Both the position numbers and the translations under genes were made by a program. 64,000 bases of DNA from Flectonema sp. DT1601 (taxonomy: Eukaryota): contig OZ025804.1 of assembly GCA_964019425.1 (NCBI GenBank), positions 124,001-188,000 on the forward strand, read 5' to 3'. Below the pieces are notes generated by a model. It worked only from the letters and a program-made list of their open reading frames with translations. It was not told the DNA's origin and did not search any database. The first letter of the stretch is position 1. Each line of letters begins with the position of its first letter. Positions 2,129 through 42,399 of this stretch are shown here, piece by piece.

Positions 2129-4881
2129 CTACCGTCCTAATAGTTGTGCCAGTCTGTCTAAGGTTGTGACAAAACCAGTCATCTGCTGTTGATTCGCAGG
2201 TAAGTAGCAGTCCTCCAGTTGGCATGCTTCCTCTCCCTTGTCATTCATCATGTGACTGATGTATTTTTCCCTCAAGGTTTCTATACACCAATGTTCGCAT
2301 ATAAATAATACATGATGTGCTGTCGCCTTTCCAAGTTTACAGAAAAAGCACAGCTCGTTCAGTCCTTTGATTATCAGAGATCTGCAATGTCCCACTCTAA
2401 AGCGTGACATCAGTACTTCCTCTGGTCGTGTTAGAGCTTCGATGTACGGAGGGTGTCTTACCTCTCCTGGTCCGATCCAGTTCTCCCTTTTTCTCCGCTT
2501 GTGAAACGTCATCAATGTTCCCATGTCAAGTTGAGTGGGCAGTTGTTTAATAATAACATCTTCGTGAGGTGGATCTTCCTTCAGGCCTGCAGCGAATTTC
2601 GCCAGTTGGTCCGCTACTTCGTTGTACCGCACGTTTCTGTGTGCCGGTACATACTGCATGTTGACTTGGATTCCCTTCTTCTCCAATTTCATTGCCAACT
2701 TCCAGATCCTCTTGTTCATTGGGGACCTTTGTTTATATGGCCCTTGTTCCAATGCCTGCATGACTGACATCGAATCAGTCAGCAGGTGCGTCGTTGCTGT
2801 TAGAGATTCATGTTCATCCTCCGCCACCTGAACTAAATTTTCCAACGCCATTTTCACTGCAATCTGCTCGGTCCTATACGAGGAACCCGCTACTGGTATT
2901 TTATATCCAAGTAGACGCATCTTGCTTTCGTTAACCATGACCACAGCGGCAGCCGAGTCTGTCATGTAAGTCTTGGGTTTGTGTCTTATCGACCCGTCAG
3001 TGTAGACTTTCATCTCGTGAGCTGGTAGTTCAGTTTCTCGCTGTTCAGCCTCTTCCTTGTTACTTGAATATGTGAATCTCATCGCACTAGTACTTTCCAT
3101 GGAGGGAGAGTGTAGTGTTCTGGGTTCACTTCCAGGTTGGTAATGCTCCGGTAATTGTCAAGGCCAGGGACACCAGAGACATAGTCTATCCAGACATTCC
3201 ATCCCCATTTCGATTTTTGAAATAATTCTGAACTCCCTGTTCTCGTCAGCTTGCGAGTCGGTAGGAACGGACTCAATTTAAAAAGTTCATAAGTTCTACA
3301 CATCTTATACTGGATGTGTTCCTTCAGTCTTGGCGTGTCGGCTTCTTTGTAAAGTCTCTGTAGTTTGGTGCTCCGCAGACATCCAGTTACCAGCCTCACT
3401 GCCCTGTTTACCAGTAATTCCAGTTGTTCGAAGCACTCTTTTGGTAGCATCCAAGCAAAGCTTTCAACACCATAAAGCACCCTTGCTAACACCACCGTCA
3501 CCAGTATACTGATGAGTGTCCTCTTTCTACAGCCTATCCTGGTGAGTCTAACCAACAAGCCTAGACCCTTGGAAGCAGCTGTCATCATCTTTTGAATTTG
3601 CGACTTAAAGGTTAACTTCTCGTCATAATGTACACCCAGGTACCGCACGGTATTCGTCTTGTGAACTTTTCGTCCAACCGCATAGGCAAATCCGTGTAGT
3701 CCGGGTCCTCATCAGGTATTCCTTGCAAGGTTGGTTCACCGTCTTCGAATTTGAATTGGTCTGCGTATGTTTTGGTGAAGACATCTGCCATCTCCCGCGG
3801 GTCGGTTAATTCCTTCTCACCGTCGACAATCTTAGTAATTGAATGGTCCATCATTCTACCTTCCAGTTGTTTAACTTTTCTAAAGGCCCATCGGTAGTCC
3901 ATTCCAGTCATGTCGCACTCAATGATCTTCTGTTTGATCATGTTGATACCTCTTTCAATTGCTTCTGAGTCTGTCTTATCAGGGTCAGTCTCTGCCATTA
4001 AATCTTCCAATTCTGAATCCCTCACAGCGAAGGTACTACTTGACTTTTTGTTGTAGCCTGGGATGGCCCTACTCGCTGCTCTCAGAATCTCGTTGTTGAT
4101 CCTATTAGCAAGTTTCTGCACATTCTTAATTCTTTCTAATTTGGGCGCTGCCCTTTCCAACAATATTTTATAATAATTCCAATCGGCACAATGCCACTTC
4201 CATTTCCATGTCCCAGAACTCTCTTTTGAATATTCATCTGTTTTGATATCTTCGATTGTCAGTTTGAGTGGCAGGTGATCGCTGCCCCATCCCTTCATGA
4301 GTTCGATTTGTGCATCTATTGAAATATCTAATGCAATTACATCCGGAGAAGCTGAGCTTTGTGGTCTTGTTTGTTGTTGAGGTTTATTTAAAATTTGAAT
4401 TGTTGCTTCTAGTGACCAATCGTAGAAGCTGTTACCAGTGGTGTTCGTATTTCCATTTGACCAAGTTGAATGGTGTCCATTAATGTCACCCGCAATCAAT
4501 GTGCCGGGCTCTGTTTTGAACTTCCAGGTTGTTGCCTTGATTTCAGGCGGGTGGTAAACATTGTGAATTGTCAATGGCGGATTAGATTGAAGTACTACTG
4601 TTAATATCTCAGTTTGGTCATGTGAGATGTCGGGGTGTTTTAATATTAACTTATTTAAATCATTTCTGACCAGAGTGACGAGTCCTCGATGACCTGACTT
4701 GATGGTGCTGTCTCGCCTGTGGATTGCATATCCTTCAATAGCGAATTGTTTTTCTTTTGATAACCACGTTTCCTGCAGTAGTACTACTTCAGGCTTTTCT
4801 TCTTTCAGTGCCCAGTTCAATCGAAAGTAATTTTCTGGTTTCAGAACTGAGCGAATGTTATTTGACCAAATCACAATCATG
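2129..4881 (-). pseudogene. Disrupted ORF2 (APE, deleted RT, RNase H, CCHC) of copy A1
   Basis: ORF pieces 3612-4910, 3079-3648 and 2129-3100 match segments of the 1305-aa A2 protein; PQGS and FADD motifs are absent. Confidence 0.92.
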
Positions 4882-6467
4882 ATTGGCCAGTGTTGTTCCT
4901 GTTGGCGCACTTGTAGTAATCTTGTTCATACCAAGATTGTTCTCAATCCTCTTGACAGCTTCTATCAACGAAGTGATGGCTGTCGCCATGTTGTTGTTGG
5001 CTGCTTCGTTCTTTTTCGTAGTTTGCACCAGGGTTTCTACAATCCCGGTTATCTGTGCCATGCCTTCATCAAGTCGAACTTGCATGTCTTTTACTTCTTT
5101 CTGGAGACGTTCGATAGTCTCGTTCGTTTTCTCTCTCAGGCTGTTCACGTTGTTTTCTACAACCTGAACTTCGGCCGTTGGTTTCTTCGTTGTCGGGAGT
5201 GACTTCTTGACCGCGGCTGCGTACGATGTCTTAGCCTCACGGTATTTTACTACAACGGGTTTCTCCGTTTCTTTCGCCTTCACTTCTGTTTCTAATTTTT
5301 CAATGAGGATGACAATATCACCACACTGTACAAACCTTGATTCTGGTTTCTTGTCCAGTGCGATGATAAAGTCCCCTCTGTCCATCCTTATAAACTTCGA
5401 CTTCAGTCCTATCTCCAATAGGATGTTCCGAAGTCTATTGCCCCAGCTGTATGGTGCTCCACTGAGACGGTGAAGCCCTTCGCCAAACACTGTGGATGCA
5501 TATTTACCAGCACCCTTTCTCACCTTGTCAACATCCTTCGTGTAAACCACCCTCAATCCAATCTTGCCATGTATGATGGTGAGTCCATGGCAGAGGTCAT
5601 GTTGGGCTTTAAGTATGCCAACCGCCTCTTCGTTTGTTGTCTTGCGGTCCAGCCACACTGTGGTGTACTGAGTGGGTGTCTGTCCCGCCACTGATTTGAT
5701 CCGGAAATAAACATTTCCTATTCCAGAGTTTTTTAGAAGTATAACAGCTGCTTCCACATCGTTTGGGAGAACAGTGAGTTCTACAAAGTCTTTGCCAACG
5801 TATCTGTAGGAGCGTTGATCGACTCTTCCGTGTTGTGCCACAACAGCTTTGACAATTGCTGTTACAGCTGCTGGATTTTGGACCTGTGACTTGGTCAACT
5901 CTTTAGTTGTTATCCACGCAATTAGTTCGTGGGTCACTGGTGGGCTGATCTTCTTGGCGATTGTTAGAGTAGGTCGGTGTATCGTGCTAGACAAAGCAAC
6001 GAACCACCAGCTTCTTATTCTTAATTGTCCATCAAATTGGACCGGCGTTTGTATCTGACTGCAGTCAGTTGCGTGTTGTAGGGCACGTTTTGGAGGTGGC
6101 CGTGTGAACACCATCGTCAGTTGCTTCGTTTTGCTGGCCTTTTCGAAGTATTGTTCGTCCAGGCTTCTTCCTTGTTGAGCCAAGTATAATTCCATTGGTC
6201 TTGCTGTTGAGGTCATCAGTTGGCTGGAGTATTTTGCAATTAAAATGCTCCTTGTTGAGTTTCGGTGGTGGTCCATTCATAATCACCGTTGATCTTCTTT
6301 GTGCCTCTTTGATTTGAGGGCTTGATTGGGGTGCCTCATTTGACGGAGGGCTTTGTTTCGTTTTTTTCTTATCCCTTCTAGTTTTTTTTTTTTTTTTTTT
6401 TTTTTTTTTGCACCACGACCCGTGAGTCTGTGATGCTGATTGCGCTGTTAGGCGCGGTTGTTCTTTT

Positions 6468-10595: not shown

Positions 10596-12457
10596 GATTG
10601 GCCAGTGTTGTTCCTGTTGGTCGCACTTGTAGTAATCTTGTTCATACCAAGATTGTTCTCAATCCTCTTGACAGCTTCTATTAGCGAAGTGATGGCTGTC
10701 GCCATGTTGTTGTTGGCTGCTTCGTTCTTTTTCGTAGTTTGCACCAGGGTTTCTACAATCCCGGTTATCTGTGCCATGCCTTCATCAAGTCGAACTTGCA
10801 TGTCCTTCACTTCTTTCTGGAGACGTTCGATTGTCTCGTTCGTTTTCTCTCTCAGGCTGTTCACGTTGTTTTCTACAACCTGAACTTCGGCCGTTGGTTT
10901 CTTCGTTGTCGGGAGTGACCTCTTGACCGCGGCTGCGTACGATGTTCTAGCCTCACGGTACTTAACTACAACGGGTTTCGCTGTTTCCTTCGCCTTCACT
11001 TCTGTTTCTAACTTTTCAATGAGGATGACAATATCTCCACACTGTACAAACCTTGATTCTGGTTTCTTGTCCAGTGCGATGATAAAGTCACCTCTGTCCA
11101 TCCTTATAAACTTTGACTTCAGTCCTATCTCCAATAGGATATTCCGAAGTCTGTTACCCCAGCTGTAAGGTGCTCCACTGAGACGGTGAAGCCCTTCGCC
11201 AAACACTGTGGATGCATATTTACCAGCACCCTTTCTTACTTTATCAACATCCTTTTGATAAACCACCCTCAATCCAATCTTGCCATGTATGATGGTGAGT
11301 CCATGGCAGAGGTCATGTTGGGCTTTAAGTATGCCAACTGCCTCTTCGTTTGTTGTCTTGCGGTCCAGCCACACTGTGGTGTACTGAGTGGGTGTCTGTC
11401 CCGCCACTGATTTAATCCGGAAATAAACATTTCCTATTCCGGAGTTTCTTAAAAGTGCGACAGCTGCTTCCACATCGTTTGGGAGAACAGTGAGTTCTAC
11501 GAAGTCTTTGCCAACGTATCTGTAGGAGCGTTGATCGACTCTTCCGTGTTGTGCCACAACAGCTTTGACAATTGCTGTTACAGCTGCCGGGTTTTGGACC
11601 TGTGACTTGGTCAACTCTTTAGTTGTTATCCACGCAATTAATTCGTGGGTCACCGGTGCGTTGATCTTCTTGGCGATCGTTAGAGTTGGCCGGTGGATCG
11701 TGCCAGACAGAGCAACGAACCACCAGCTTCTTATTCTTAATTGCCCATCGAATTGGACAGGTGTCTGTATCTGACTGCAGTCAGTTGCGTGTTGTAGGGC
11801 ACGTTTTGGAGGTGGTCGTGTGAACACCATCGTCAGTTGCTTCGTTTTACTGGCCTTTTCGAAGTAGTCTTCGTCCAGGCTTCTTGCTTGTTGAGATAAT
11901 GCAAGTATAATGCCGTTGGTCTTGCTGTTGAGGGTCTCAGTTGGCTGGAGTATTTTGCATTTAAAATGCTCCTTGTTTAGCTTCGGTGGTGGTCCATTCA
12001 TAATCACCGTCGATCTTCTTTGTGCCTCTTTGATTTGAGGGCTTGATTGGGGTGCCTCATTTGACGGAGGGCTTTGATCTGCTTTTAAAAATTTACTTCC
12101 ATGTGCCTCGATATTTTGAGGGCTTATTTGAATTGCCTCTTTGTTTTGAGGGCTTGTCTTTGTTTGAGTTGCCTCCTTGTTTTGAGGGCTTGCTTGAAAT
12201 GCTGCGGGAGGTCCCACTGCGGTCACCTCTACTGCGATTCCTTCCGGTACTTCTGGAGAGTCCATCTCCATTTCTTCCTCTGATACTTCTGGTGATTCTC
12301 CCATCACCACGTCCTCGTCTTCTCGCTGTTGGGTCTCTTCTTCTTCCCGGATCTCATTTCTGGCTTGTTCCCTCATCATCTTCGCCTCTTTCCTTTCTCT
12401 TTCTCTCCTTTCTGCAGCCCTTCTATCTTGCGGACGCATTGCTTTCTTTCCAGCCAT
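10592..12457 (-). CDS. ORF1 (gag-like) of A2, 621 aa; charged N-terminus, SPQ repeats, C-terminal coiled-coil-like region
   Basis: Lies upstream of ORF2 with a 4-nt ATGA stop/start overlap; near-identical in A3. Confidence 0.88.
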   Translation of the reverse strand: MAGKKAMRPQDRRAAERRERERKEAKMMREQARNEIREEEETQQREDEDVVMGESPEVSEEEMEMDSPEVPEGIAVEVTAVGPPAAFQASPQNKEATQTKTSPQNKEAIQISPQNIEAHGSKFLKADQSPPSNEAPQSSPQIKEAQRRSTVIMNGPPPKLNKEHFKCKILQPTETLNSKTNGIILALSQQARSLDEDYFEKASKTKQLTMVFTRPPPKRALQHATDCSQIQTPVQFDGQLRIRSWWFVALSGTIHRPTLTIAKKINAPVTHELIAWITTKELTKSQVQNPAAVTAIVKAVVAQHGRVDQRSYRYVGKDFVELTVLPNDVEAAVALLRNSGIGNVYFRIKSVAGQTPTQYTTVWLDRKTTNEEAVGILKAQHDLCHGLTIIHGKIGLRVVYQKDVDKVRKGAGKYASTVFGEGLHRLSGAPYSWGNRLRNILLEIGLKSKFIRMDRGDFIIALDKKPESRFVQCGDIVILIEKLETEVKAKETAKPVVVKYREARTSYAAAVKRSLPTTKKPTAEVQVVENNVNSLREKTNETIERLQKEVKDMQVRLDEGMAQITGIVETLVQTTKKNEAANNNMATAITSLIEAVKRIENNLGMNKITTSATNRNNTGQS

Positions 12458-12464
12458 TTTATTT

Positions 12465-12519
12465 CAATAAAGTACAGAAACAATAAAGTACAGAAACTGT
12501 AGCTTTAGAATCGTTGGTT
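12465..12519 (-). other. Full 39-nt spliced-leader exon (12481-12519) followed by a 16-nt relict SL (nt 24-39; 12465-12480), 7 nt upstream of the ORF1 ATG
   Basis: Minus strand reads AACCAACGATTCTAAAGCTACAGTTTCTGTACTTTATTG TTTCTGTACTTTATTG AAATAAA ATG. The 39-nt length and CAGTTTCTGTACTTTATTG end match euglenozoan SL exons. No GT donor follows. Confidence 0.9.
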
Positions 12520-12615
12520 CTAGTATTTTTTTTTTTTTGTGTGCACCACGACCCGTGAGTCTGTGATGCTGATTGCGCTGTTAGGCGCGGTTGTTCTTTT
12601 TCTTTCTTTCTTTCT

Positions 12616-12743
12616 CACATGGCATCGTTTTTCGATCGCGATCCCCGTGATTTCCTTTTCCTCTTCTCTTTCCCACGCCGCGATCTCTCCAACAATCCGC
12701 AGCATTCAGCGTAGTCACACTTCACGCACATGACTACCCGCGG
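12616..12743. other. About 128-bp foreign insertion in the (GAAA)n tract of the A3 3' UTR
   Basis: Absent from A1 and A2 at the same position; flanked on both sides by TCTTTCT. Confidence 0.75.
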
Positions 12744-18748: not shown

Positions 18749-20642
18749 ACAGTAATTATCTTGCATCCTTTGGGCACCTGTTTGGAAGAAAGGAAACATG
18801 AGAAACAAATCACTCGGTGATATCAATAAACTAAACAATGGTCAACTTGGTGGACTACCCATGCGAGTAGGTCACCGCGTTGGGGTTGTGGTGGGTCCGC
18901 CATGGATGGGCTGGACGCCGCTGCCGGTCCCAGTTCTGTTCGTTGGGTTGCCGGCGATGGAGGGTCGGTGGGTGGGACTTTTTTTTTTTTTTTTTTTAAA
19001 AAGGTGTGGGTGGGTGGGAATTTAAAATTCGTGAAAAAGGTATGCGCGAAACGGGGTTCGAAATCTGATAAATGGGTGTGAATTAAGAATTGGTATTAAG
19101 AAACTAATAATCATAATGTTGGATTTACATTATGGGAACGCATCGAAAAATTCGATGCTTGGTGAAACGGTGCTTTGGGATGCTGCAAATTACTGAAATA
19201 TATTTAACAGTAATTATCTTGCATCCTTTGGGCACCTGTTTGGAAGAAAGGAAACATGAGAAACAAATCACTCGGTGATATCAATAAACTAAACAATGGT
19301 CAACTTGGTGGACTACCCATGCGAGTAGGTCACCGCGTTGGGGTTGTGGTGGGTCCGCCATGGATGGGCTGGACGCCGCTGCCGGTCCCAGTTCTGTTCG
19401 TTGGGTTGCCGGCTCCACCACCCCGCCGCGAGTTAAAGAATTCCCCCAGCGCAAGTTCTACCTTCTGCCTGGTAGCCGAAGATATTGCTTCCCTAGATGG
19501 AATATCTGCTGGGTTGTACTTCGTACTCACCCATTTTAAAGAAAAAGAACACTTAAAAAACAAAATTCTCTCCACTGCTTTTATAACAAAAAAGTTCAAA
19601 TCATGCGATCTTACACACATTCTCTTCCTGAATGCTCCACATACCGAGGTATTGTCTACCCAGATGTCCAGGTGGTCAGCATGGCTGATTCCATCCAGAG
19701 TCCTGGCCAGAGCATCAGCTTCAAGAATGTTAATGTGGCGACTCTCACCATATGGCCATGCCCCTCCCAGGATTTCCAATTCTCCAGATTCCCAAACAAT
19801 AACCCCGCCCCACCCTTGGAGCGAGGCATCAACAAATACCTCAGCTTTCTTTTTCTTTGTCCCATTCAACTTAATGATCCTTTTCTTCTGGACCGACTTA
19901 CACCAATTGAAAAACTCTCTTTTCACAGAGGGGGGAATAACCACTTCCTGTTCAACACGTAAAGAGCCCTTGTTGAGCTTGTTTGTTACTCTTCTCAGAA
20001 ACTTTAAAGCAAACCAGTAACGCCCAGGTGGAACACCTGAAATTGCACTTGCATGTAGAAGTCTCCCCCCTAATGACTCGATACTCGAGGCAGTCATACG
20101 ATTTAAATCACACTTGAAAATACCTCTTCTAATCTTGGCACCTAAGCCCACTTCCTTTGCATTATGTAAAAAAGAAACACCAAGAAAATCATAAGATCCA
20201 CCACAGTTAACTGTATCCTGTGGTTTCCAAGAAATGTTGCATTCAGATGCCAGTTTATCCAATCTTTCTGTTGCACTGTGCACCTTCTCCCTTCCACCGA
20301 AATACCTGATATTGTCGATCCACCAATGGATCCCAACATCCTTCTCCGCATACCTGTCCTTGACAAAAAGCGGGTCACCTGCTACCACAGCAGCCACGGT
20401 GTTCATTATTTCCGGTGCACAAACATGCCCCATGGGCAGTCTGGTCAAGGCATTTAAAATTCGTGAAAAAGGTATGCGCGAAACGGGGTTCGAAATCTGA
20501 TAAATGGGTGTGAATTAAGAATTGGTATTAAGAAACTAATAATCATAATGTTGGATTTACATTATGGGAACGCATCGAAAAATTCGATGCTTGGTGAAAC
20601 GGTGCTTTGGGATGCTGCAAATTACTGAAATATATTTAACAG
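18749..20642 (-). mobile_element. Internally deleted tyrosine-recombinase-type (DIRS order; TATE/VIPER/Ngaro-like) retroelement with split direct repeats
   Basis: A 191-bp repeat occurs at 20452-20642 and 19020-19210, and a 207-bp repeat at 19207-19413 and 18749-18955. On the minus strand this gives A1-coding-B1-A2-B2. Both ends and the B1/A2 junction share CTGT. Encodes an RT/RNase H remnant. Confidence 0.82.
19330..20448 (-). pseudogene. C-terminal RT plus RNase H fragment of the YR-type element
   Basis: RT-like LPMG, WWIDNI and DFLG; RNase H-like VFVDAS..GWG, HINILEA, WVDNT and NPADIPSR. The RT N-terminus, gag and recombinase are missing. Confidence 0.8.
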
Positions 20643-20896
20643 AAACTGTAGCTTTAGAATCGTTTTTTTTTTTTTTTTTTTTTTTTGTGTGCACAGCAGG
20701 TTCCTTCGACCTGCTTTGCTGTTTGCGCTGTTAGGCGCGGTTGTTCTTTCTTTCTTCTGTAAACTTTCTTTTTGTGGGGATTGGGGATGGGATGGGGGGT
20801 TCCCGTAGGCTTCGTATCTTCTTTGTTTTCTTTGTTTATCAATTACTAAAGAGTTCAGTTTACTTCCTCATTTGGTCTAAGAACCGCATCTTTAAA

Positions 20897-24862: not shown

Positions 24863-26543
24863 TTTGACAGTGGTTTTGGTTTGCTGTTACTTGGTGGGTA
24901 GTTCCGCTTAGCCCTACCTTGGCTTCTATCTTGTTGACGGCGGTTGCAATTTGAGATATTGCATTCAACATTAGTTGATAGTTTTTAACAATCATTTCTT
25001 CATTTTTCTTTGTCGCATTGGTCAGTCCTTCAATTATCTGCGTCATTTTTGACATCGTTTCATCCAATCTAGTTTGCAAGTCAGCTACCTCAGTTTGTAA
25101 TTTTGCTAGCGTCTCGTCAGTTCTTTCCTTCATAGTCTTGAGACCATCTTCTACTTTCTTCAGTTCTTGCGTTTTTCCCTGCGATGGGGGCAGTTTATTT
25201 TCTTGTTTTTTGGGCTGCTTGTTTCCTTGCAGTGTCTTTTTAGTTGCTTCCGCATAAGATATTTTCGCATCTCGATACTTTTGTACGGCTGGTTTTGGTT
25301 GTTTTTGGTCTTCTGGCAGCTCCATTTTCTCAATAGACATCAGGGTCTCACCACATTGTAAGAACTGGCTTTTCGGACTTTTATCGAGGGCGACCAAGAA
25401 GTCGCCTTTCTCCATGCGAATAAATTTAGAATTTAATCCCGCTTCCAAGAGCATTCCCTGGAGCCGGTTCGACCACCTGTACTGTGCACCACTGATACGG
25501 TACAGTCCAGCACCGTAGACTTGCGCAGCGAATTTTCCGGCACCCTTCCGTACTTTCTCTACGTTTGCAGAGGCACTCACCCTTATCCCTATCTTCCCAT
25601 AGTTGGTAGTCAGCCCCATGCACATGTCTTGTTGTGCCTTCAGGACTCCCATGGCTTCCTCATTCGAAGTTTTCCTGTCAAGCCATACTGTTTCATAGAC
25701 ATGCTTGGTCAGGCCCTCTATCGATTTTATCCTGAAGTAAACTTTGTTACTCCCTGAGTTGTGCATCAGTGCGATTGCTGCCTTTTCATCATTTGGTAGG
25801 ACTGTGACTTCACTAAAATCCCCCTTTCCAACTATCCGGAATGTCCTTGTGTCGACCCGTCCCTGATCACCCACCACTGCCTTGATTTTTGCAGTAAGCG
25901 ATGCTGGGTTTCTGATAGCATCTCCTCCTAGCTCCTTTGTTGTAGCCCACGCGATGAGTTCGTGAGTGATCGGTGGCTTTATGTTTGTTGCCACTATTAG
26001 TGTTGGGGTGTAGGTTGCTCCGGTAAAAGTCACAAACCACCATGATCTTATTCTTATTTGTCCATCAAATTGGACCGGCGTTTGTATCTGACTGCAGTCA
26101 GTTGCGTGTTTTAGGGCACGTTTTGGAGGTGGCCGTGTGAACACCATCGTCAGTTGCTTCGTTTTGCTGGCCTTTTCGAAGTATTGTTCGTCCAGGCTTC
26201 TTCCTTGTTGAGCCAATGAAAGTATAATTCCATTGGTTTTGCTGTTGAGGTCATCAGTTGGCTGGAGAATTTTGCAATTAAAATGCTCCTTGTTGAGTTT
26301 CGGTGGTGGTCCATTCAAGATCACCGTTGATCTTCTTTGTGCCTCTTTGATTTGAGGGCTTGATTGGGGTGCCTCATTTGACGGAGGGCTTTGTTTCGTT
26401 TTTAAAACACTTCCTTGTGCCTCTATGTTTTGAGGGCTTATTTGAATTGCCTCTTTGTTTTGAGGGCTTGTCTTTGTTTGAATTGCCTCCTTGTTTTGAG
26501 GGCTTGCTTGAAATGCTGCTGGAGGTCCTACTGCGGTCACCTC
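24855..26543 (-). pseudogene. 5'-truncated ORF1 of A4
   Basis: Begins at EVTAVGPP and lacks about 77 N-terminal aa of A2 ORF1; overlaps the ORF2 start by 8 nt (ATGATTGA). Confidence 0.82.
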
Positions 26544-26643
26544 AAAGACAAAACAAAGAAGTGAAAAGAACAAAAACAAAGAGTCTGGAAGCACAAACGA
26601 GTGTAACCAAAAGAAAAGAAAAATTCTTTTTTTAGCTTTTTTC

Positions 26644-29600
26644 TTTTTTTTTTTATTTATTTATTTATTTATTTAGTCACATCCCCCCTGTCTTTCCACT
26701 TTATTTTTCTTCATTCTGAGCATTCTTGCCCTTCTTATTTTTTGATAAAGTAAACAATTAAAAACAAGCGCAACTGTCCTGAGTCCGTTGGAGGACTTCC
26801 CCGGATAGGAATCTCAAGACACAGTTAATATAAAGCGAAGGATCAGTACAGGGACGGTGGCCAAAGACCACTGGGTTACCTACGAGCCATGAAGCTCTGC
26901 GGATGTCCTCAGAGAAATTAGGAGATGATTAAGGAGTGTGATAAGGAAGAATGATACTAATGAATTAGCAACTACCAATCAGTTAACAGTTTGATAAGCC
27001 TGTTCGTTGTTCCAAATGCCATAAGTAGCCGGCTAGGGCGTGAAGATTTCTCGTCGCAAACATTATTGAAAGATTTAGTTTGGTCTCGGAGATTCTCGCT
27101 TCCTGAATGTTTGATCTAATTGTTCCTTCTCTAATGCGGACCACGTCACCATCCTCGCAATCAAATATTAGATGTCGGGCAGAAGAGTCTGTTCTTTTGC
27201 AGAAGGGGCACTTTATCGGTAGTTCATTTACCCTGAGCAGGGGGTGAGAGCCCGTTCTGAACCTGGCTATCCTTATCTCTGATTCTCTCAGCATGTCCTT
27301 GGGGTATCGAGCCGCTCTCAGGCCTCCGGTAGCATCAAGATATTGCCTAAGCATCACCCGTTTGATCGGTGGTTTCGCCCTTGTTGAACCCTCCATAATC
27401 TTACCAAACAGCTTTCTGTTAGCTTCCCTCGCTATCCTTGACTTATGTGCGAAGAAGTCCATAGTCGTTGACACCGGCTTGCTCTTAACATCTTTTGAGA
27501 TCTTTTTCGCCAGTTCATCTGCCTTGTCATGCGGTTCAATTCCCACATGAGCTGGGATGAATTGGAGGTGAACGAATGAGTCTAATTTTCTTATCCCTTC
27601 TAGTATCGAGAGAGAGTTCAGCTTCCTCTGAGCCGCAATTCCACCACGCAGCTCATCCAGATTGGATTTAGAATCACTGAAGACTCTCGTGATTCCAGAT
27701 CTGGGACCCAAGACAGAGGTTGCTTTTTCAAATTCACTTATTAACAGCTTCAGAGTTACCTGTTCAGCTTTATAACTACTTTCCGTTGCAACAAGTCTCG
27801 ATGCCATGGTCCGTTCACACGGCGTGATCTGCACTGCCGCTGCGCCTGCCGTGTAGTTGACAGGGTCGTGGGATCCGTCAACAAAAATGGACGAGGTACA
27901 AGGCCTAAGTTCGCTGCAGTACTCCTCGAACTTAGCCTTGTCCACTTCAGCAACACAGGTCTTCGAATGTCCATATCCGCAAGATATCTCCAGGTTCGGA
28001 ACATCTATCCATGGCTCGATGCTGTCAGGCATGACAATCCCTTGGATCTCCATATTACGGTCCTCGGCCGGTAAAGTTGAACTCCAAGTTCCACTAGCGA
28101 TTCCCTTCGTAGAAGGAACCCAATCCAGTGACCGATACCTAAATAAGGCAATCCTGGCTTGCTTCTCAATCTGCAGTCTCATCGGGAGTATGTTCGCCTC
28201 CCACAGTAACGGAAGGGACCTTGTGTTGAAGCCGCAGCCGGTGATCTTTCTAGCTATCTCCCTCAGATTCAGGTCAATAGGTTTAAGCTGTTCATCTGTC
28301 AGGAAAGGTCCATAGCTCTCAAGCCCATACAGAATCCTTGAGAGGATGTACAAGTTCTTGATCATGTTCAGCGTTTTGAAATCAAAGTTGAATAGCTCCA
28401 ACTTTCGAAGCAGAACAAGTCCCTTCCTCGTCTCATCCAGTAGTTTATCCACTTGTGTACCATATGTAAGGTCATCGTCAATATGGACACCCAAGTACTT
28501 AACACTATCCACCATCGGCATGAGTACGGCAGTCAGCAACTTCACCCAGGTCGGATCCGGACCCACTGGCATCAGTTCAAGAAGTTCACTTGCCTTCGTA
28601 ACCTCCGTATCACCCAGCTTGAGGATCATCGCCCCATTTCCAAGTAATGGCCTACCTTCTTCATTTGACCGAATCATCCCAGCCAGTTCCTCCCTACTGA
28701 TCCGAAAGAAGTTCTCTCCTGACGTTCTGGGGAATCCCAGTCTCCAATACATATTCCTAGGACAGTCCACCGGCATCCCGCAGGTCTTCGAAACCGACAG
28801 TGCCATGTCATTATCTTTGCACCAACGATCCACTAACCCAAGGACTAATTGCGCCATCCGGTAAGTTACTTTAAAATCCTTATTCGAAACCACACAAGCT
28901 GTGTCGTCTGCGTAGAGTGCTGAAACACATCCGGTCTTCTCAAGTTTCTTAGCCAGGTCGTCGACATATATCAGATAAAGGAGAGGCCCAACAATCGACC
29001 CTTGCGGAACACCTTTCGTCACAGTTCTGTATGCGCTCAGATTGCCATTGACACTAACCTTTGCCTTCCTTCGCGTCAGAAAGTTAGCGACCCATCCGAT
29101 GAATGGTGAAGGAATCCCCATCGTCACCATTTTAGCAATCAGTTTAACATGATTTATCCTATCAAATGCCTCAGTGAAGTCGAAAGAGAGCAGTATCGAA
29201 CTCTTGCCACCTTTTCTCGCACCATGAAGCGCATTGACCAGCAGTGAGATTTGCTCGCAAGTATTCCTACCCCTTCTGAAACCTGCCTGAATGGAGGACA
29301 AGGCATTATTTGACGTCAACCAATACATTAGCCTGTCGTAAATTATCCGTTCAAGCATTTTACCGACTACAGATGTCAACGTGATCGGTCTGTAGCTGGA
29401 TAGCTTTTCTTTGGGTTTACCCGGTTTGTATACCGGTTTGATCATACCCTCTTTCCAGACCTTCGGAACTCTAGCTGAGAGCCAGGAGTCGTTGAACACC
29501 GCTAAGAGAAAACGTCTACCGGTTGCAGAAAGGTTCTTCAGCATCGCCCCGTGGATTCCATCAGGACCAGGAGCCTTACCAGTTTTAACCTTCTTGATGG

Positions 29601-30864
29601 CGCGCTCAAGCTCAGACATCACCAGAGGTCCACAAGCACCTACGTAATCACTTGGCTTCAGCTTCGAAGATTTCAGTTGTTTCCTGACAGAGGTCTTAAC
29701 GAACTGATCGAGAAATTTACTGGGGAGTTGGTCCTCACTGAATTCAGGGATTTGGACGTCCTGTCCCCCATCGGCATCCAAGTCCTTAATCTTCTTAAAG
29801 GCGAATGCAAAACCTTCACCTTGTGCAAGTTTCTCAGCAACGAATTTTCCCTTCGCTTGTTTGGTCTCAGGGGTTGAGGAATTCCACATTCTCCTCCTCT
29901 TACCCTGGATCCTGAGCCTTCTGCGGATGTTCTTCTTCGCCACATGAAGCAGGATACGGTTAAATGTTGCCGCTCTGATACCCACCTTCGGAGGACTGTT
30001 CACCTTGCTAAGTCGGTAATCCAAATCATGACGGAACGAGTACCAATCAGCTGTATTAAAGTCCCAGACTGATTTTTTCGATGCCTGGTTGTTAACTGTT
30101 TCCAGAGGTGAGAACGTATCAAAGACAGCAGCAAGAGGTAAGTGATCAGATCCATGTTCAGTGCCATCACCTATTAGCCCGAAGTGTAGTAGTAGTAACT
30201 CCTCGTGGTGTAGGATTGCATCCGGCGAAGTCCCGTGTCTCGGCAACGTCACAAATCCCGGATCGTTTGCAATTAGAAGGTTATTAGATCTGCACCACTC
30301 CAGAAGCTGGCAGCCCTTCGTATCCGTCTTCTTCGACCAGAGTTTATGATGGGCATTGAAGTCACCAGCAAATATAAACCTTTCATCACGCTTCAAAGGG
30401 AAGAGATCAAAATCTATCTTAGAACTTGGTGGCGAATACACGTTAAGAACATTTATCTCATCATTAATCCTGACACCCAATGTCTCAACAATTCCTCTAA
30501 CCGAAGGGATACAGACTTCATAGCAAGCATGCTGAAGGCCTCTCTTCACCATGGTGATTATACCGCCACCTCTACCCGGTCTATCTCTCCTGTACGTGAT
30601 GTAATTCCAGTGATATAGAGGCTTCCGAACTGAGGTTTCCTGCAGGCATAATACATCAGGGCTGTACTTTCCCAGGATATTTCCTATGAACTCCTCTCTT
30701 CCGTTGATCGTTCTGCAGTTCCAGCTGATAACTCGCAGCTCCGAAGTGGGTCCATCATGACGGCGTCTCGGTCCCGGATTCCTCTCTACGTCACCCGCCA
30801 GTAGCAGAAGACGCCTTCGCGTTTCCGCCCAATCCCGCCCGTCAAGTCACTTGCTCCCTACAAG
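26644..30864 (-). mobile_element. Non-LTR retrotransposon family B (Ingi/L1Tc-like, 2A-bearing), copy B1, truncated just upstream of ORF2
   Basis: (TAAA)n/A tail at 26644-26675, conserved 3' UTR, intact ORF2 with N-terminal 2A motif. Confidence 0.92.
26983..30846 (-). CDS. ORF2 of B1: 2A peptide, APE, RT, RNase H, CCHC; open frame starts right after TGA at 30847-30849, first ATG lies inside the APE domain
   Basis: Manual translation: *LDGRDWAETRRRLLLLAGDVERNPGP..VISWNCRTI..LCLQETS continues in frame into the 1189-aa ORF (GDFNAH, SDH, GVPQGS, YADD, YLG, VDGS, CPFC..H..C). Confidence 0.92.
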   Translation of the reverse strand, partial: LDGRDWAETRRRLLLLAGDVERNPGPRRRHDGPTSELRVISWNCRTINGREEFIGNILGKYSPDVLCLQETSVRKPLYHWNYITYRRDRPGRGGGIITMVKRGLQHACYEVCIPSVRGIVETLGVRINDEINVLNVYSPPSSKIDFDLFPLKRDERFIFAGDFNAHHKLWSKKTDTKGCQLLEWCRSNNLLIANDPGFVTLPRHGTSPDAILHHEELLLLHFGLIGDGTEHGSDHLPLAAVFDTFSPLETVNNQASKKSVWDFNTADWYSFRHDLDYRLSKVNSPPKVGIRAATFNRILLHVAKKNIRRRLRIQGKRRRMWNSSTPETKQAKGKFVAEKLAQGEGFAFAFKKIKDLDADGGQDVQIPEFSEDQLPSKFLDQFVKTSVRKQLKSSKLKPSDYVGACGPLVMSELERAIKKVKTGKAPGPDGIHGAMLKNLSATGRRFLLAVFNDSWLSARVPKVWKEGMIKPVYKPGKPKEKLSSYRPITLTSVVGKMLERIIYDRLMYWLTSNNALSSIQAGFRRGRNTCEQISLLVNALHGARKGGKSSILLSFDFTEAFDRINHVKLIAKMVTMGIPSPFIGWVANFLTRRKAKVSVNGNLSAYRTVTKGVPQGSIVGPLLYLIYVDDLAKKLEKTGCVSALYADDTACVVSNKDFKVTYRMAQLVLGLVDRWCKDNDMALSVSKTCGMPVDCPRNMYWRLGFPRTSGENFFRISREELAGMIRSNEEGRPLLGNGAMILKLGDTEVTKASELLELMPVGPDPTWVKLLTAVLMPMVDSVKYLGVHIDDDLTYGTQVDKLLDETRKGLVLLRKLELFNFDFKTLNMIKNLYILSRILYGLESYGPFLTDEQLKPIDLNLREIARKITGCGFNTRSLPLLWEANILPMRLQIEKQARIALFRYRSLDWVPSTKGIASGTWSSTLPAEDRNMEIQGIVMPDSIEPWIDVPNLEISCGYGHSKTCVAEVDKAKFEEYCSELRPCTSSIFVDGSHDPVNYTAGAAAVQITPCERTMASRLVATESSYKAEQVTLKLLISEFEKATSVLGPRSGITRVFSDSKSNLDELRGGIAAQRKLNSLSILEGIRKLDSFVHLQFIPAHVGIEPHDKADELAKKISKDVKSKPVSTTMDFFAHKSRIAREANRKLFGKIMEGSTRAKPPIKRVMLRQYLDATGGLRAARYPKDMLRESEIRIARFRTGSHPLLRVNELPIKCPFCKRTDSSARHLIFDCEDGDVVRIREGTIRSNIQEARISETKLNLSIMFATRNLHALAGYLWHLEQRTGLSNC

Positions 30865-30880
30865 AATAAATAAAACCCTA

Positions 30881-33800
30881 TTTTTTTTATTTATTTATTT
30901 AGTCACATCCCCCCTGTCTTTCTACTTTGTTTTTATTCTTTCTGAGCATACTCGCTCTTCTTATTTTTTAACTAAGTAAATAAGCAACAACGAGTGCAAC
31001 TGTTGTGAGTCCGTTGGAGGACTTCCCCGGATAGGAAGCTCACGACACTGTAAGTACAAAGCGAATGATCAATACGGAGACGGTGGCCAAAGACCACTGG
31101 GTTACCTGCGAGCTATGAAGCTCTACGGATGTCCTCAGAGAGTTATTAGGAGATGAATTAGGAGTGATGTATGAGTATGATATACTAAAAAGATAGTAAC
31201 TTCTGATAACAGCTTGTTGCCGTCCATTGTTCTAAATGCCATATGAAGCCAGCGAGGGAATGTAAGTTCCTCGTAGCGAACATAAATAGCAGGCTGTGTT
31301 CCTTCTTTGAAATCTTCGCTTCTTCCATGACAGATCCAATTGTTCCATCTCTGATGCGTACCAGAGCAGAGTTCATGCAGTTAAACATCAAGTGTCTAGG
31401 TGATGAGTCCGTCCGTCTACAAAAAGGGCACTTCAGTTGTACGCCTTTGTCTCTCAGCAAGGGGTGTGAACCCGTTCTGAATTGTGCAATTCTTACTTCC
31501 GAAGCTCTCAGCATGTCTTTCGGATATCTAGCAGTTCTCAATCCTCCGGTCGCCTCCAGATACTGTCTGAGCATCACCCGTTTCATTGGAGGCTTTGCCT
31601 TCTCGGAGGCTTCCATCATCTTTCCTATCAACTTCCTGTGAGACTCCCTCGCTACCCTTGATTTGTGGGCGAAGAAATCCATGGTCGTTGAGACCGGTTT
31701 ACTTTCGGCATCCTTCGAGACTTCTTTGGCCAGCTTATCAGCCTTATCGTGTGGTTCAATCCCCACATGGGCCGGGATGAACTGGAGATGCACCTGTGTC
31801 TTCAGATCCCTAATGCTTTCCAGTATTAACAGAGAGTTCAACTTCCTCTGGGCAACAATCCCTCCATTGAGTTCCTCCAGGTTGGATTTCGAGTCACTGA
31901 AGATTCTGGTAATACCTGACCTGGGACCCAAGATCGAGTCAGCTTTGCCAATTTCTCTCATCAGCAGTTTGAGTGTTACTTGTTCAGCCTTGTAGCTGCT
32001 TTCAGTAGCTACAAGTCTTGACGACATCGTTCTCTCAGTTGGTGAGACCTGTACTGCTGCCGCACCCGCAGTGTAGTTAACAGGATCATGTGAGCCGTCC
32101 ACATATATAGCCGAGTTGCAAGGGACTAAGTCCCTGCAGTATTCCTCAAATTTGTTCCTATCCACATCTGCATCACCGGTCTTGTTATGACCATACCCAC
32201 AGGATATCTCTAGATTTGGTACATCCGCCCAAGGTTCGATGCTGTCAGGTTGAACTATTCCTTGGAGGGCGATGTTACAATCTTCCTGCGGCAACTTAGA
32301 ACTCCAGAATCCTTTCGCTATTCGGTTCGTCGAACGTACCCACTTCAGCGATCGATACCTAAACAGAGCAGTTCTGGCCTGTTTTTCTATTATCAACTTC
32401 ATCGGGAGCATGTTCGCCTCCAAGAGCAGTGGGAGAGACCTGGTGTAGATGCTGCAACCCGTTATCCTTCTCGCAATCTTCTTCAGATTCAAGTCCACAA
32501 GATCAATCTGACCCTCAGATAGGAAAGGACCGAAGCTCTCCAGCCCATATGACAGCCTTGAAAGTATGTACAGGTTCTTGACCATGCACAGCGTCTTAAA
32601 ATCAAAATCATACTGTTCTAGTTTCCCCAGGAGTGCAAGACCCTTCCTGGTCTCATCCAGCATCTTTCCGACCTGTGTTCCATAAGATAAATCACCATCA
32701 ATGTGCACCCCCAGGTATTTAACGCTGTCTACCATCGGCATCAGTACTGCGGTTAACAACTTTACTCTCAGCTTACTTGATCCATCAGGGAAAATTGCAA
32801 GCAGGTCCTTCGTATTAGCAACTTCGGTATCATCCACCTTGAGAATGGTTTCTCCACTCCCCAGAATTGGCCTTCCAAACTCGTTCGGTCTGATCATCTT
32901 AGCCAGATCTCCCCTGCTTACAACGTAATAATTATCCTTTGCAGTCCTGGGGAAGCCCAGTCTCCAGTAGATATCCTTTGGGCAGCGCACAGGCATACCA
33001 CATGTCTTAGAGACGGACAGTGCCATATCATTGGTTTTGCACCAGCTATCCACAAGTCCAAGGATCCATTGCGCTTTCTTATTGGTTAAATTAACGTCCT
33101 TATCAGAGACTACACAAGCGGTGTCATCTGCATAAAGAGCCGAAACTGAGCCAGTCTTCTCCAACAACTTTGCCAGGTCATCAACATAAATCAGGTATAG
33201 CAGCGGACCGATAATCGATCTTTGGGGAACCCCCCTCGTTACCGTTCTGTAGGAGCTAAGGTTGCCATTCGCACTCACCCTTGCCTGCCTGCCCTTCAGG
33301 AAGTCAACTACCCATGCAATGAACGGGGAGGGAATACGCATGTTCTTCATCTTCTTGATCAGTTTCTCATGATTAATTCTATCAAATGCTTCCGTGAAGT
33401 CGAACGACAGCAGAACAGAGCTCTTGTTCTTTTCACTGGCCTCATGAAGAGCGTTGACTAACATTGAAATCTGCTCACACGTATTCCTTCCTCTTCTAAA
33501 ACCCGCCTGGATAGACGACAGGGCATTGTTCTGGGTAAGCCAATACATCAACCTATCATAAATCACTCTTTCAAGTACTTTACCCACCACCGAGGTCAAC
33601 GTGATCGGTCTGAAACTTGCGATCTTATCTTTTGGCTTACCTGGTTTGTAAACTGGCTTGATAAGACCCTCCTTCCAGATCCTCGGTACCTTTGACGTTA
33701 GCCACGATTCATTGAATAACGCCAGGAGGAAATCCATTCCTATCACCGATAAGTTCTTCAACATTATCCCATGGATCCCATCTGGACCTGGTGCTTTCCC

Positions 33801-35181
33801 GGGCCTTACCTTCTTGATGGCTCGCTTCAGTTCAGTCATTGTTAGATTCCCTCCGATTTTGGCGAAGTCGCTGCTCTTCGTATTCGGAGGTCCTAGTTTA
33901 CGTTTTGTCGGGGTCTTGACAAATTGTTCCAAGAACTTCGCAGGTAGTTGGTTCTCGTCAAACTCCGGAATGTGAATTTCACGTCCTTCATCCGTCTCAA
34001 GGTCCTTTATCTTTTTGAACGCATATGCAAAGCCTTCACCTTTTGCTAGCCGTTCAGCGATAAATTTTCCCTTCGCACGCTTGGTATCTGGGGTGGAAGC
34101 GTTCCACATTCTTCTTCTCTTCCCTTTGATCCGAAGCCTTCTCCTAACGTACCTCTTCGCTACTCCAAGAACGATTCTGTTGAACGTTACTGCTCTTCTC
34201 CCAACGCTCGCAGAGTTGTTTACCTTTCCAAACCTGTAGTCTAGTTCATGTTCATATGAGTACCAATCAGCTGTATTGAAGTCCCAGACCGATCTCTTCG
34301 TCGCGTGGTTGCCCGAAGGCTCAAGGGGTGAGGGCGTATCGAAGGTAGCAGAGAGTGGTGTATGATCCGAACCGTGCTCAATTCCTTCACCTACCAGCTC
34401 AAAGTTAAGCAGTTGAATCTCCTCGTGGTGCAGGATCAGATCGGGCGAGGTCCCATGTCTCGGCAGTGTCGCTAGACCTGGCGGGTTCGCAATCAGGAGG
34501 TCCTCTTGCCCTGTCCAGTTGAGAAGGTCACAGCCTTTTACGTCGGTTTTCTTGGACCAGTACCTATGGTGTGCGTTGAAGTCACCAGCGAGAATGAACT
34601 TGCCAACACGTTTCAGGGAGAATAGTTCAAAATTAATCCTCGAGCTCGGTGGGGAGTAGATGTTGAGAATACTTACGTCTTCGTTAATTCTGACACCCAT
34701 CGACTCGACGGTTCCTCTCATCGACGGTATGGAGATATCAAAGCAATCATGTTGAATTCCTCGTTTTATTAAAGTGATCAGGCCACCTCCCCTTCCTGGC
34801 CTATCCCTCCTGTAGCAAACGTAGTTCCAATGAAACAATGCCATCCTGCAAGAAGTCTCCTGAAGGCAAAGTACGTCGGGGTCAAGCTTACTCAGGATGT
34901 GTCCAATGAACTCCATTTTGTTCGAGATGGTGCGACAATTCCAACTGATTACATTTAGTTTGCAAGAGGGACCATCCTTTCTCCTATTTGGCCCTGGGTT
35001 TCGTTCAACGTCCCCTGCTATCAGCAAGAGACGTCTTCGAGTCTCAGCCCAGTTCCTTCCATCTACGTGCCGTCATTTACCTTCCAAGAATCTCGTCATC
35101 AGCATCTCTAAACGATCCATCCTTCGTTCCATCGTATCCTGTTCAGCTGTCGACTTCATCACAGTTTTCTTTGTCACAACC
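30881..35181 (-). mobile_element. Family B copy B2, 5'-truncated in the C-terminal part of ORF1
   Basis: (TAAA)n tail, conserved 3' UTR, intact ORF2, and 35 codons of an upstream ORF ending in TGA at 35073-35075. Confidence 0.92.
31185..35072 (-). CDS. ORF2 of B2: 2A peptide, APE, RT, RNase H, CCHC
   Basis: *RHVDGRNWAETRRRLLLIAGDVERNPGP followed by WNC, LQET, GDFNAH, SDH, YADD, YLG and VDGS. RT motif reads GVPQRS (G to R), possibly inactivating. Confidence 0.92.
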   Translation of the reverse strand, partial: RHVDGRNWAETRRRLLLIAGDVERNPGPNRRKDGPSCKLNVISWNCRTISNKMEFIGHILSKLDPDVLCLQETSCRMALFHWNYVCYRRDRPGRGGGLITLIKRGIQHDCFDISIPSMRGTVESMGVRINEDVSILNIYSPPSSRINFELFSLKRVGKFILAGDFNAHHRYWSKKTDVKGCDLLNWTGQEDLLIANPPGLATLPRHGTSPDLILHHEEIQLLNFELVGEGIEHGSDHTPLSATFDTPSPLEPSGNHATKRSVWDFNTADWYSYEHELDYRFGKVNNSASVGRRAVTFNRIVLGVAKRYVRRRLRIKGKRRRMWNASTPDTKRAKGKFIAERLAKGEGFAYAFKKIKDLETDEGREIHIPEFDENQLPAKFLEQFVKTPTKRKLGPPNTKSSDFAKIGGNLTMTELKRAIKKVRPGKAPGPDGIHGIMLKNLSVIGMDFLLALFNESWLTSKVPRIWKEGLIKPVYKPGKPKDKIASFRPITLTSVVGKVLERVIYDRLMYWLTQNNALSSIQAGFRRGRNTCEQISMLVNALHEASEKNKSSVLLSFDFTEAFDRINHEKLIKKMKNMRIPSPFIAWVVDFLKGRQARVSANGNLSSYRTVTRGVPQRSIIGPLLYLIYVDDLAKLLEKTGSVSALYADDTACVVSDKDVNLTNKKAQWILGLVDSWCKTNDMALSVSKTCGMPVRCPKDIYWRLGFPRTAKDNYYVVSRGDLAKMIRPNEFGRPILGSGETILKVDDTEVANTKDLLAIFPDGSSKLRVKLLTAVLMPMVDSVKYLGVHIDGDLSYGTQVGKMLDETRKGLALLGKLEQYDFDFKTLCMVKNLYILSRLSYGLESFGPFLSEGQIDLVDLNLKKIARRITGCSIYTRSLPLLLEANMLPMKLIIEKQARTALFRYRSLKWVRSTNRIAKGFWSSKLPQEDCNIALQGIVQPDSIEPWADVPNLEISCGYGHNKTGDADVDRNKFEEYCRDLVPCNSAIYVDGSHDPVNYTAGAAAVQVSPTERTMSSRLVATESSYKAEQVTLKLLMREIGKADSILGPRSGITRIFSDSKSNLEELNGGIVAQRKLNSLLILESIRDLKTQVHLQFIPAHVGIEPHDKADKLAKEVSKDAESKPVSTTMDFFAHKSRVARESHRKLIGKMMEASEKAKPPMKRVMLRQYLEATGGLRTARYPKDMLRASEVRIAQFRTGSHPLLRDKGVQLKCPFCRRTDSSPRHLMFNCMNSALVRIRDGTIGSVMEEAKISKKEHSLLFMFATRNLHSLAGFIWHLEQWTATSCYQKLLSF

Positions 35182-35200
35182 AATAAATAAAAACCCTAAA

Positions 35201-38200: not shown

Positions 38201-38301
38201 CTAGGTTTAACAGACGGTGATTTCAACTTCGGTCTATTTGAGGTCTTGACATATTGGTCTAGGAACTTTTCGGGCAGCTGTTTCTCATCGAACTCAGTAA
38301 T
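35201..38301 (-). mobile_element. Family B copy B3, 5'-truncated (no APE), frameshifted near 36480
   Basis: ORFs 36367-38226 (RT) and 35543-36385 (RNase H/CCHC) are homologous to B1/B2; conserved 3' UTR and A-rich tail. Confidence 0.9.
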
Positions 38302-38362: not shown

Positions 38363-38369
38363 GCCGCTT

Positions 38370-38418
<49 letters not shown>

Positions 38419-38435
38419 AATCCCAGGTGGTGGCA
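38363..38435 (+). tRNA. tRNA-Phe (GAA)
   Basis: 73 nt: D-arm GCTC/GAGC, anticodon arm TCAGA-CTGAAGA-TCTGA, T-arm CCTGG-TTCAATC-CCAGG, A and B boxes. The acceptor stem has G-U pairs and a U7-U66 mismatch. Confidence 0.93.
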
Positions 38436-38973: not shown

Positions 38974-39459
38974 CTAATTCTTCGACGTCTGTGTGACTTT
39001 GCGGTTGACCTTAGCCAATACAAACACAACAGATGTGAGGGATGAACAATGACTTAGAAAGTAATTTCCAACAACTGAAAAATTGCTGAGACCTGATAAG
39101 TCAACAGATGTGACGTATTGAAGACCAGGAAGACTGACCTTTATAACCTTACGAGATGAGGATAAGAAATCATCCGAAACGGTCGTGACTGAGGGTTCAG
39201 GGTTGCTGAATGAGATGTTCGTAACATCATCCAAGAACCACTCACCCACAGCGAATGTGGGAGTATCAAGGCAGAAAAACCCGTCCTGATCCCGTTCTCC
39301 TCGTAGGAATGCCTTCGCTCTCTTTGCAGCATCTGTGAACCATTCCAATCCAAACAAGTGCACCACAGATGCAACCAACAGCGAGCCGTCCTCCACTCCG
39401 TGCGACACCAGTCGACTACCTGCTCGAAGCAGCGATCCTGCGAATGAAAGCTCGAACAT
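38974..39459 (-). pseudogene. Deleted/truncated paralog of the ubiquitin-like + LRR genes
   Basis: Near-identical to parts of 40982-42082, but lacks the N-terminus and most repeats. Confidence 0.8.
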
Positions 39460-39681
39460 ATTTCTTCAAACAGACTTCTTTTTCTTACATATCACGATTT
39501 AGTCTCAACCTATTGAAGTTAGGGGTTCTGATGTCATCTTCGCTGTTAAGTGAAAAGTGATAATTAAGTTTCACTTTAAAAGAAGAAACAGACAAATCAA
39601 AAACAAACAGTGGCCGACTTTAGCCAAACAACACAGTGATTGCGGTGACAAGTTCGCATCAGAAATACTCAAATTCATGCA

Positions 39682-42082: not shown

Positions 42083-42399
42083 TTTAACTCGCCTGAGTAA
42101 CCTACGAAATGTGATGATGAATGGCTTGGAGTATGATGAGATTAAAGAACGTGTAAAAACAAATTTCTTCAAACAGACTTTCTTTTTTTTTTGTTGCACA
42201 ATATGGTCCCAACCTATTGAGATTAAATGCCACTGGGGGTTCTGACAATGTCATCTTCGCTGTTAAGTAAAAAATGATAATTAAGTTTCGCTTTAAAAGA
42301 AGAAACAGACGAACCAAAAACAAACAGTAGTTGACTTCAGCTAAACAACACAGTGATTGCGGTGACAAGTTCCGTATCAGTTTCTGAGTCCACTCTGAA

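Follow-up and report, generated by a model that had tools for sequence, protein, structure and literature searches.

The retroelement array and its family A copies

The window (the whole stretch of DNA analysed, 64,000 nt from Flectonema sp. DT1601) opens with 38 kb of retroelements arrayed head to tail on the minus strand; long host ORFs on that strand, at 38974-61282, lie upstream of them. A tRNA gene separates the host genes from the array, and tRNA was the only Rfam match in the window at gathering score. The host genes at 38974-45901 and 51012-57164 (minus strand) comprise tandem leucine-rich-repeat proteins with 75-nt units and an ORF that, by eye, is ABC-transporter-like. Positions 26650-38300 hold three tandem copies of an endonuclease-reverse transcriptase-RNase H family without a long ORF1, approximately 26% identical to the ORF2 of the family discussed below; this second family starts about 60 nt upstream of the tRNA-Phe gene (38363-38435) and is oriented away from it. 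At each of its junctions, (TAAA)n is followed by a TAGGGTTTT-like word, and targeting of the tRNA or of this motif is possible.

Family A is represented in the window by four copies, of which A2 and A3 are intact and A1 and A4 are 5'-truncated. The three copies around A2 are as follows:

6365-1104, minus strand: A1, 5'-truncated, with an internal ORF2 deletion and 800 nt of (AAAG)n
18702-12526, minus strand: A3, the intact sister, with ORF1 at 18702-16840 (620 aa), ORF2 at 16843-12926 (1305 aa) and poly(A) at 12538-12526
26543-20665, minus strand: A4, 5'-truncated, from a diverged subfamily (ORF2 59% identical to that of A2), with no spliced leader (SL) at its 5' end

A2 and A3 differ at 117 of 5934 aligned letters, and the ORF2 of each matches the Pfam endonuclease, RVT_1 and RNase H families. 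The 3' UTRs vary in their (AAAG)n tracts, which in A1 (1172-1967) has grown to 200 units (800 nt) and in A3 (12616-12743) contains approximately 120 extra letters that are absent from A1, from A2 and from contigs of sequencing runs X1 and X2. The truncated 5' end of A4 (26541-26600) lies behind an 85% pyrimidine tract followed by AG, a textbook splice acceptor, with an in-frame ATG at 26147; with this arrangement, splicing and translation of A4 are conceivable despite its truncation.

Beyond the window, 91 member sequences make up the family A ORF2 cluster, and two sister clusters contain 31 and 39; long ENA contigs are the source of them all. The closest named relatives are transcriptome proteins of Flectonema neradi, with which family A forms a diplonemid clade in a reverse transcriptase tree (support 100/99, 24 of 26 rows kept), from which the host is taken to be a diplonemid; this tree does not include metagenome loci L006 and L008, which the A2 query did not match, and the matches included no sequence named ingi or L1Tc. 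A search for ORF2 relatives in viral contigs gave six pattern matches, none of which was confirmed.

Structure and boundaries of A2

The leader-bearing copy, A2, consists of the following features:

12524-12520, minus strand: 5' copy of the target-site duplication ACTAG, the next AA being SL nt 1-2
12519-12481, minus strand: complete copy of the 39-nt SL exon at the A2 5' end, by sequence match
12480-12465, minus strand: relict leader, SL nt 24-39, starting after the AG of nt 22-23 (16/16 identical)
12464-12458, minus strand: 7-nt spacer AAATAAA, the sole sequence between the leader and the ORF1 ATG
12457-10592, minus strand: ORF1, 621 aa, no Pfam family, its stop overlapping the ORF2 start (ATGA)
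10595-6678, minus strand: ORF2, 1305 aa, apurinic-type endonuclease, reverse transcriptase and RNase H (Pfam)
6677-6382, minus strand: 3' UTR with an (AAAG)n tract and a 28-nt poly(A) at 6409-6382
6382-6376, minus strand: 3' copy of the target-site duplication, ACTAG(AA), directly behind the poly(A)

With ORF1, an ORF2 that encodes endonuclease, reverse transcriptase and RNase H, a poly(A) and a target-site duplication, A2 is an autonomous APE-type non-LTR retrotransposon. The endonuclease at the ORF2 N-terminus belongs to Pfam Exo_endo_phos_2, and no restriction-like motif of the PD-(D/E)xK type was found in A2 ORF2 by a pattern that finds it in three of four metagenome reverse transcriptase ORFs. 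Atlas matches to ORF1 below 0.9 are treated as leads only.

The ORF1 ATG stands at 12457 on the minus strand, and the succession of a 39-nt SL, SL nt 24-39, 7 nt and this ATG that the initial annotation had described holds letter for letter at 12519-12457. The leader contains AG only at nt 16-17 and nt 22-23, and the relict begins immediately 3' of the second; the claimed cut at this internal AG, with no GT or SL intron behind it, agrees with the letters, as GT follows neither the full leader nor the relict. Allowing two mismatches or fewer, the 16-mer occurs three times in the window against 0.17 expected, a count reached in none of 100 shuffles. The relict and the leader are identical at 16 of 16 positions with no inner decay visible, in a copy that is young (2% from A3). 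Among the two window copies with a complete ORF1, one (A2) has a relict and the other (A3) has none. Upstream of the A2 ATG there is no AG outside the leader, and the only stretch common to the 5' ends of A2 and A3 is TAAAATG, ATG included. With these features and only 7 nt ahead of the ATG, A2 cannot accommodate an upstream promoter or a ribozyme of 77 nt; a promoter might lie within ORF1.

The duplication ACTAG(AA), 5-7 nt long, encloses SL, relict, A2 and poly(A), so that the inserted unit of leader, relict, both ORFs and tail measures 6138 nt. Chance agreement at the flanks of A2 amounts to 0.0048 for a random 4-mer pair and 0.0004 for a 6-mer pair, to be read for a duplication that is short and was recognised post hoc. 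ACTAG as an element terminus was ruled out, being absent from the other family 3' ends checked in the window (A1 and A4); the 16-mer as the A2 target-site duplication was likewise ruled out, being absent from the A2 3' end. Since the duplication lies outside the SL, the copied RNA included the leaders, and the 16-mer cannot be explained as the scar of insertion into an SL gene. Judged by these boundaries, A2 very probably derived from an RNA that carried a spliced leader, and it is inserted right behind the A3 poly(A).

Identity of the 39-mer as a spliced leader

The 39-mer matches the 'Euglenozoa 14' leader of PMC3795323 at 37 of 39 letters, and a precedent exists in D. papillatum, where the leader exon has 39 bp and the SL genes are in tandem (PMC10161547). 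The junction was compared with four sequencing runs, of which X1 and X2 gave contigs and X7 and X8 gave no contig. X1 and X2 are presumed to contain the organism of the window, given that they share family A sequence with it; one contig from each has the exact 39-mer with GTACAG behind it and a flank ending in TAAGGTT ahead of it. By their sequence these contigs are SL RNA genes with GT after nt 39, as the initial annotation had proposed should be seen in true SL RNA genes. Its identification of the 39-mer as an SL is accordingly borne out by the published euglenozoan leader and by the gene contigs, and on the grounds of sequence and gene structure the 39-mer is a diplonemid-type SL exon. Neither flank of the SL gene (the GT intron or TAAGGTT) is present around A2.

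Other leader pieces in the window

Upstream of A3, leader sequence occurs in two pieces, both letter-for-letter equal to the A2 leader:

20664-20639, minus strand: SL nt 5-30, the 5' piece of a split leader, right behind the A4 poly(A)
20638-18749, minus strand: split-direct-repeat element of 1.9 kb, inserted in the leader at CTGT, with a 367-aa ORF at 20433-19330
18748-18740, minus strand: SL nt 31-39, the 3' piece of the split leader
18739-18703, minus strand: 37-nt spacer before the A3 ATG (18702), consisting of 17 nt, an A run, then TT and AAA

An SL located 37 nt upstream of A3 had been reported; the distance and the letters stand, but the leader is not one block, being clipped at its 5' end and split by the 1.9-kb insertion. 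In the inserted element, 18749-18955 repeats as 19207-19413 and 19017-19213 as 20449-20645; CTGT occurs at both of its ends and at its internal repeat junction, and the only Pfam match of the 367-aa ORF is RNase H-like and below threshold. By its repeats it looks like a non-autonomous element of the DIRS order, presumably TATE/Ngaro-like.

This leader may not be A3's own: both ends of A3 show an A run followed by T, which might represent the A3 duplication, and the leader may then belong to a short upstream retrocopy rather than to the RNA of A3. One X1 contig has the A3 alleles at four of four listed ORF1 sites and the start of A3's A run, in which the contig ends; it hints that the A3 5' form, as far as the A run, is common in the family.

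A further leader remnant lies behind A1:

1103-1075, minus strand: altered leader remnant (nt 17-21, 15 other letters, nt 31-39) behind the A1 poly(A)

This remnant is broken near nt 30/31, as is the A3 leader, and lies ahead of an unclassified ORF (1027-65) that runs toward the window edge. The ORF has no homologue among longer proteins, no Pfam match and no match to metagenome locus L008; it may be akin to CRE-type proteins.

The same junction in metagenome and viral contigs

An SL tail joined to nt 24-39 was found at seven loci in metagenome contigs, none of which continues with GT. The pattern demanded the nt 24-39 unit, and because the 16-nt unit was forced, these counts cannot reveal a preference for it. 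At three of the seven (L006, L008 and L010) the next ORF carries Pfam RVT_1; L006 and L010 also show the restriction-like endonuclease motif, which marks an element class other than family A. At L007 and L009 the junction runs into long ORFs without Pfam match, and the contigs of L005 and L011 end 125 and 487 nt past the junction. L011 has a third unit, nt 18-39, that was unforced by the search and starts after the leader's other AG. L010 contains two restriction-like-endonuclease elements (2-2764 and 2900-6085) that are 43% identical and arranged head to tail as in the window array, with leader and relict at their junction.

The outer leaders begin near nt 11-13 in L006 and L008, and at nt 5-7 in L010, L011 and A3. 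In a cap-4 structure the nucleotides next to the cap are modified, and the starts at nt 5-7 might reflect stalling of the reverse transcriptase at modified cap nucleotides.

A tandem pattern of open length gave no loci in prokaryote genomes and one in viral contigs, L012, which was discarded as chance, being a phage-like AT-rich stretch with no leader. Giant-virus-like contigs (L001-L004 on one 237-kb viral contig, L015 and L017) carry the leader in cis before ORFs. In L001-L004, all six leader heads sit 18-19 nt behind a AAAATTGA-like motif and four are the exact 39-mer of the window, which points to a diplonemid host. Bodo saltans virus is described as probably independent of leader splicing (PMC5871332), and the idea that it uses the host leader was dropped as contradicted by that source.

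A proposed cycle of repeated trans-splicing

The structure of A2 suggests the following course of events. In an ancestor, a leader would have been trans-spliced onto the RNA 7 nt before ORF1, and leader and RNA would have been inserted together; the leader-bearing copy would then have been transcribed from outside, likely by polycistronic read-through. The spliceosome would have used the CAG within the inserted leader as its acceptor and added a new capped leader, after which ORF2 would have placed the relict-bearing RNA immediately behind the A3 poly(A) by target-primed reverse transcription. Because no other AG lies upstream of the A2 ATG, the leader copy would serve as a portable splice acceptor that supplies a promoterless element with a cap and fixes where its 5' end lies. 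Since the 5' end is lost in most new copies, relict arrays would not grow long. What the DNA preserves are the products of this cycle, and from these we infer each RNA step.

That A2 was reverse-transcribed from an RNA that was trans-spliced at the AG of a leader already inserted in a previous round appears probable. With leader and relict enclosed by one duplication, two splice-and-insert rounds through the internal AG are the simplest reading, held with good confidence, and the earlier view that A2 records at least two cycles thereby fares well. For the wider claim of the initial annotation, that the whole family lives by leader recycling without a promoter, the prospects are about even. The sequence just upstream of the proposed acceptor is 33% pyrimidine in A2, a value that refers to the present site and not to the donor locus; the A4 5' junction has 85%. 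A low pyrimidine content upstream of the acceptor is poor by trypanosome rules, and a tRNA gene, such as the one ahead of the array, might stop read-through as in trypanosomes.

A single round might also yield the A2 5' end if the inner 16-mer were a clipped SL cDNA end and the outer leader came from a template jump or RNA ligation to a free SL exon, or if 16 nt were duplicated at the DNA level. Template switching and ligation do yield chimeras of small RNA and LINE within one duplication (bioRxiv 10.1101/2025.02.02.635956), and both observed relict starts follow a G, so that 1-nt microhomology with the last G of the leader explains these starts more cheaply than pure chance. However, an AG is formed by only two of the four internal Gs, and the relicts of 16 and 22 nt each start after one of those two; moreover, the outer unit ends exactly at nt 39 with no intron, and chimeras of the kind described are typically 5'-truncated LINEs (bioRxiv 10.1101/2025.02.02.635956), whereas A2 is complete. 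A single round is therefore judged unlikely. Rather unlikely as well is a leader that acts in cis, with a start signal of the element's own (in ORF1 or in the leader copy) driving transcription from leader nt 1 and trans-splicing at the internal AG as an occasional accident. Leader nt 1-4 are intact in A2, a single relict is seen despite the large family (the 91-member ORF2 cluster), the giant-virus contigs have the window's leader in cis behind a promoter-like motif, and in dinoflagellates relict leaders have been suggested to act as promoters (PMC6050394). However, the leader-to-ATG stretches of A2 and A3 differ completely, contrary to what would be predicted from a fixed internal start, the promoter of the trypanosome SL gene is described as external (PMC4035085), and the relict would still require one splice at AG.

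Targeting of leader sequences by family A, in the manner of CRE, SLACS and CZAR and with the 16-mer as target-site duplication, would account for the leader pieces behind poly(A) in three of the four family copies (A3, A4 and A1) and for the position of all four ACTTTATTG words of the window at family junctions, a number that 3 of 100 shuffles reach. CRE-type elements insert at about leader nt 11-13, near which the outer leaders of L006 and L008 start; the 3' flanks of these two loci lie outside their contigs, so that SL-targeted insertion may apply there. For family A, such targeting is highly improbable, and for A2 it is largely refuted by the sequence around the copy. The ORF2 endonuclease is of the apurinic type and lacks the restriction-like motif, the leader pieces that follow A3, A4 and A1 begin at nt 1, 5 and 17, respectively, and the 5' ends of A4 and A1 are leader-free. 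On its 3' side, A2 is followed by neither leader nor intron, and SL-gene flanks are absent. The initial annotation had named as contrary evidence a copy inside an SL RNA gene, with the 16-mer as duplication and SL intron at the 3' flank; what is found instead is a different duplication, A2's own, outside the SL.

Comparison with known systems

Relict SLs of recycled mRNAs are known from dinoflagellates, where their description is credited to Slamovits and Keeling 2008 (cited via PMC3229502 and PMC6050394). As in A2, a full leader is followed there by a leader truncated after an internal AG, an arrangement read as repeated transcription, trans-splicing and retroposition (PMC3229502). A2 shows the features by which such relicts are recognised, with a relict after a leader AG behind a full leader, no SL intron, a poly(A) and an outside duplication of 5-7 nt. 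In dinoflagellates, however, the cargo consists of host genes, and the mobilising enzyme is given as unknown in the available passages of these reports (PMC3229502, PMC6050394), whereas the cargo in A2 is an autonomous LINE with a poly(A) and a target-site duplication in a euglenozoan host.

Among the LINEs of trypanosomatids, ingi and L1Tc encode an endonuclease, a reverse transcriptase and RNase H. Like A2, these are non-LTR elements of hosts with polycistronic transcription and a 39-nt leader (PMC1874656, PMC4035085). L1Tc carries a 77-nt internal promoter and ribozyme and produces unspliced RNA (PMC1874656, PMC4035085), and unspliced transcripts are presented as a general trait of trypanosomatid LINEs (PMC1874656). 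The Pr77 hallmark (77-79 nt, promoter plus HDV-like ribozyme) is not at the A2 5' end, where 7 nt only separate leader and ATG; A2 differs from L1Tc in this 7-nt UTR, in its ORF1 and in having the SL within the insertion.

Transcripts of SLACS are probably trans-spliced. The accessible part of PMC4162612 makes no mention of trans-spliced SLACS transcripts. As in A2, leader sequence adjoins the 5' end in the CRE clade (SLACS, CZAR, CRE1 and CRE2; PMC12278014) and in NeSL (PMC4640811), but these elements have a restriction-like endonuclease and a fixed insertion position in SL RNA genes (PMC12278014, PMC4640811). A2 does not reside in an SL gene, and the SL intron follows none of the four window copies. 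In flatworms, partial leaders beside LTR and LINE elements have been considered possible products of trans-spliced element RNA (PMC12582326); unlike the case of A2, this is offered as a possibility, and duplications, relicts and repeated cycles go unmentioned in the available text of that paper. U6/LINE-1 chimeras resemble A2 in that one duplication encloses a LINE and, at its 5' end, a small-RNA sequence, but arise by ligation or template switch and usually involve truncated LINEs (bioRxiv 10.1101/2025.02.02.635956), whereas A2 is a complete element that carries exactly the exon donated by trans-splicing.

Implications for retrotransposon biology

Recycling through relict leaders has been described as apparently unique to dinoflagellates (PMC3229502), and a search of the literature by title and start of abstract, covering few subscription papers, found no relict leaders on a euglenozoan retrotransposon. 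What is likely new at A2 is a leader bounded by a duplication, a second-round relict in an intact autonomous element, and the presence of the same junction on other element classes. A2 would extend relict-leader recycling to Euglenozoa and would tie it to a named enzyme, which was missing in the dinoflagellate work.

A LINE must regain its own 5' end in each generation, and trans-splicing discards everything upstream of the acceptor. Trypanosome LINEs reportedly avoid splicing by means of an internal promoter and a ribozyme; A2 points to the opposite solution, in which splicing is accepted and the acceptor is carried in the leader. A broader proposal, which is tentative and somewhat less likely to be right than wrong, is that several unrelated non-LTR lineages of diplonemids and free-living kinetoplastids (the APE-RNase H family A and at least two restriction-like-endonuclease types) gave up promoters and 5' UTRs and use a retro-copied leader as a self-renewing acceptor, the number of relicts (16/22 nt) corresponding to generations. 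If this is true, the relict count would be a per-copy record of successive rounds of transposition, with each generation of the element capped by the host spliceosome.
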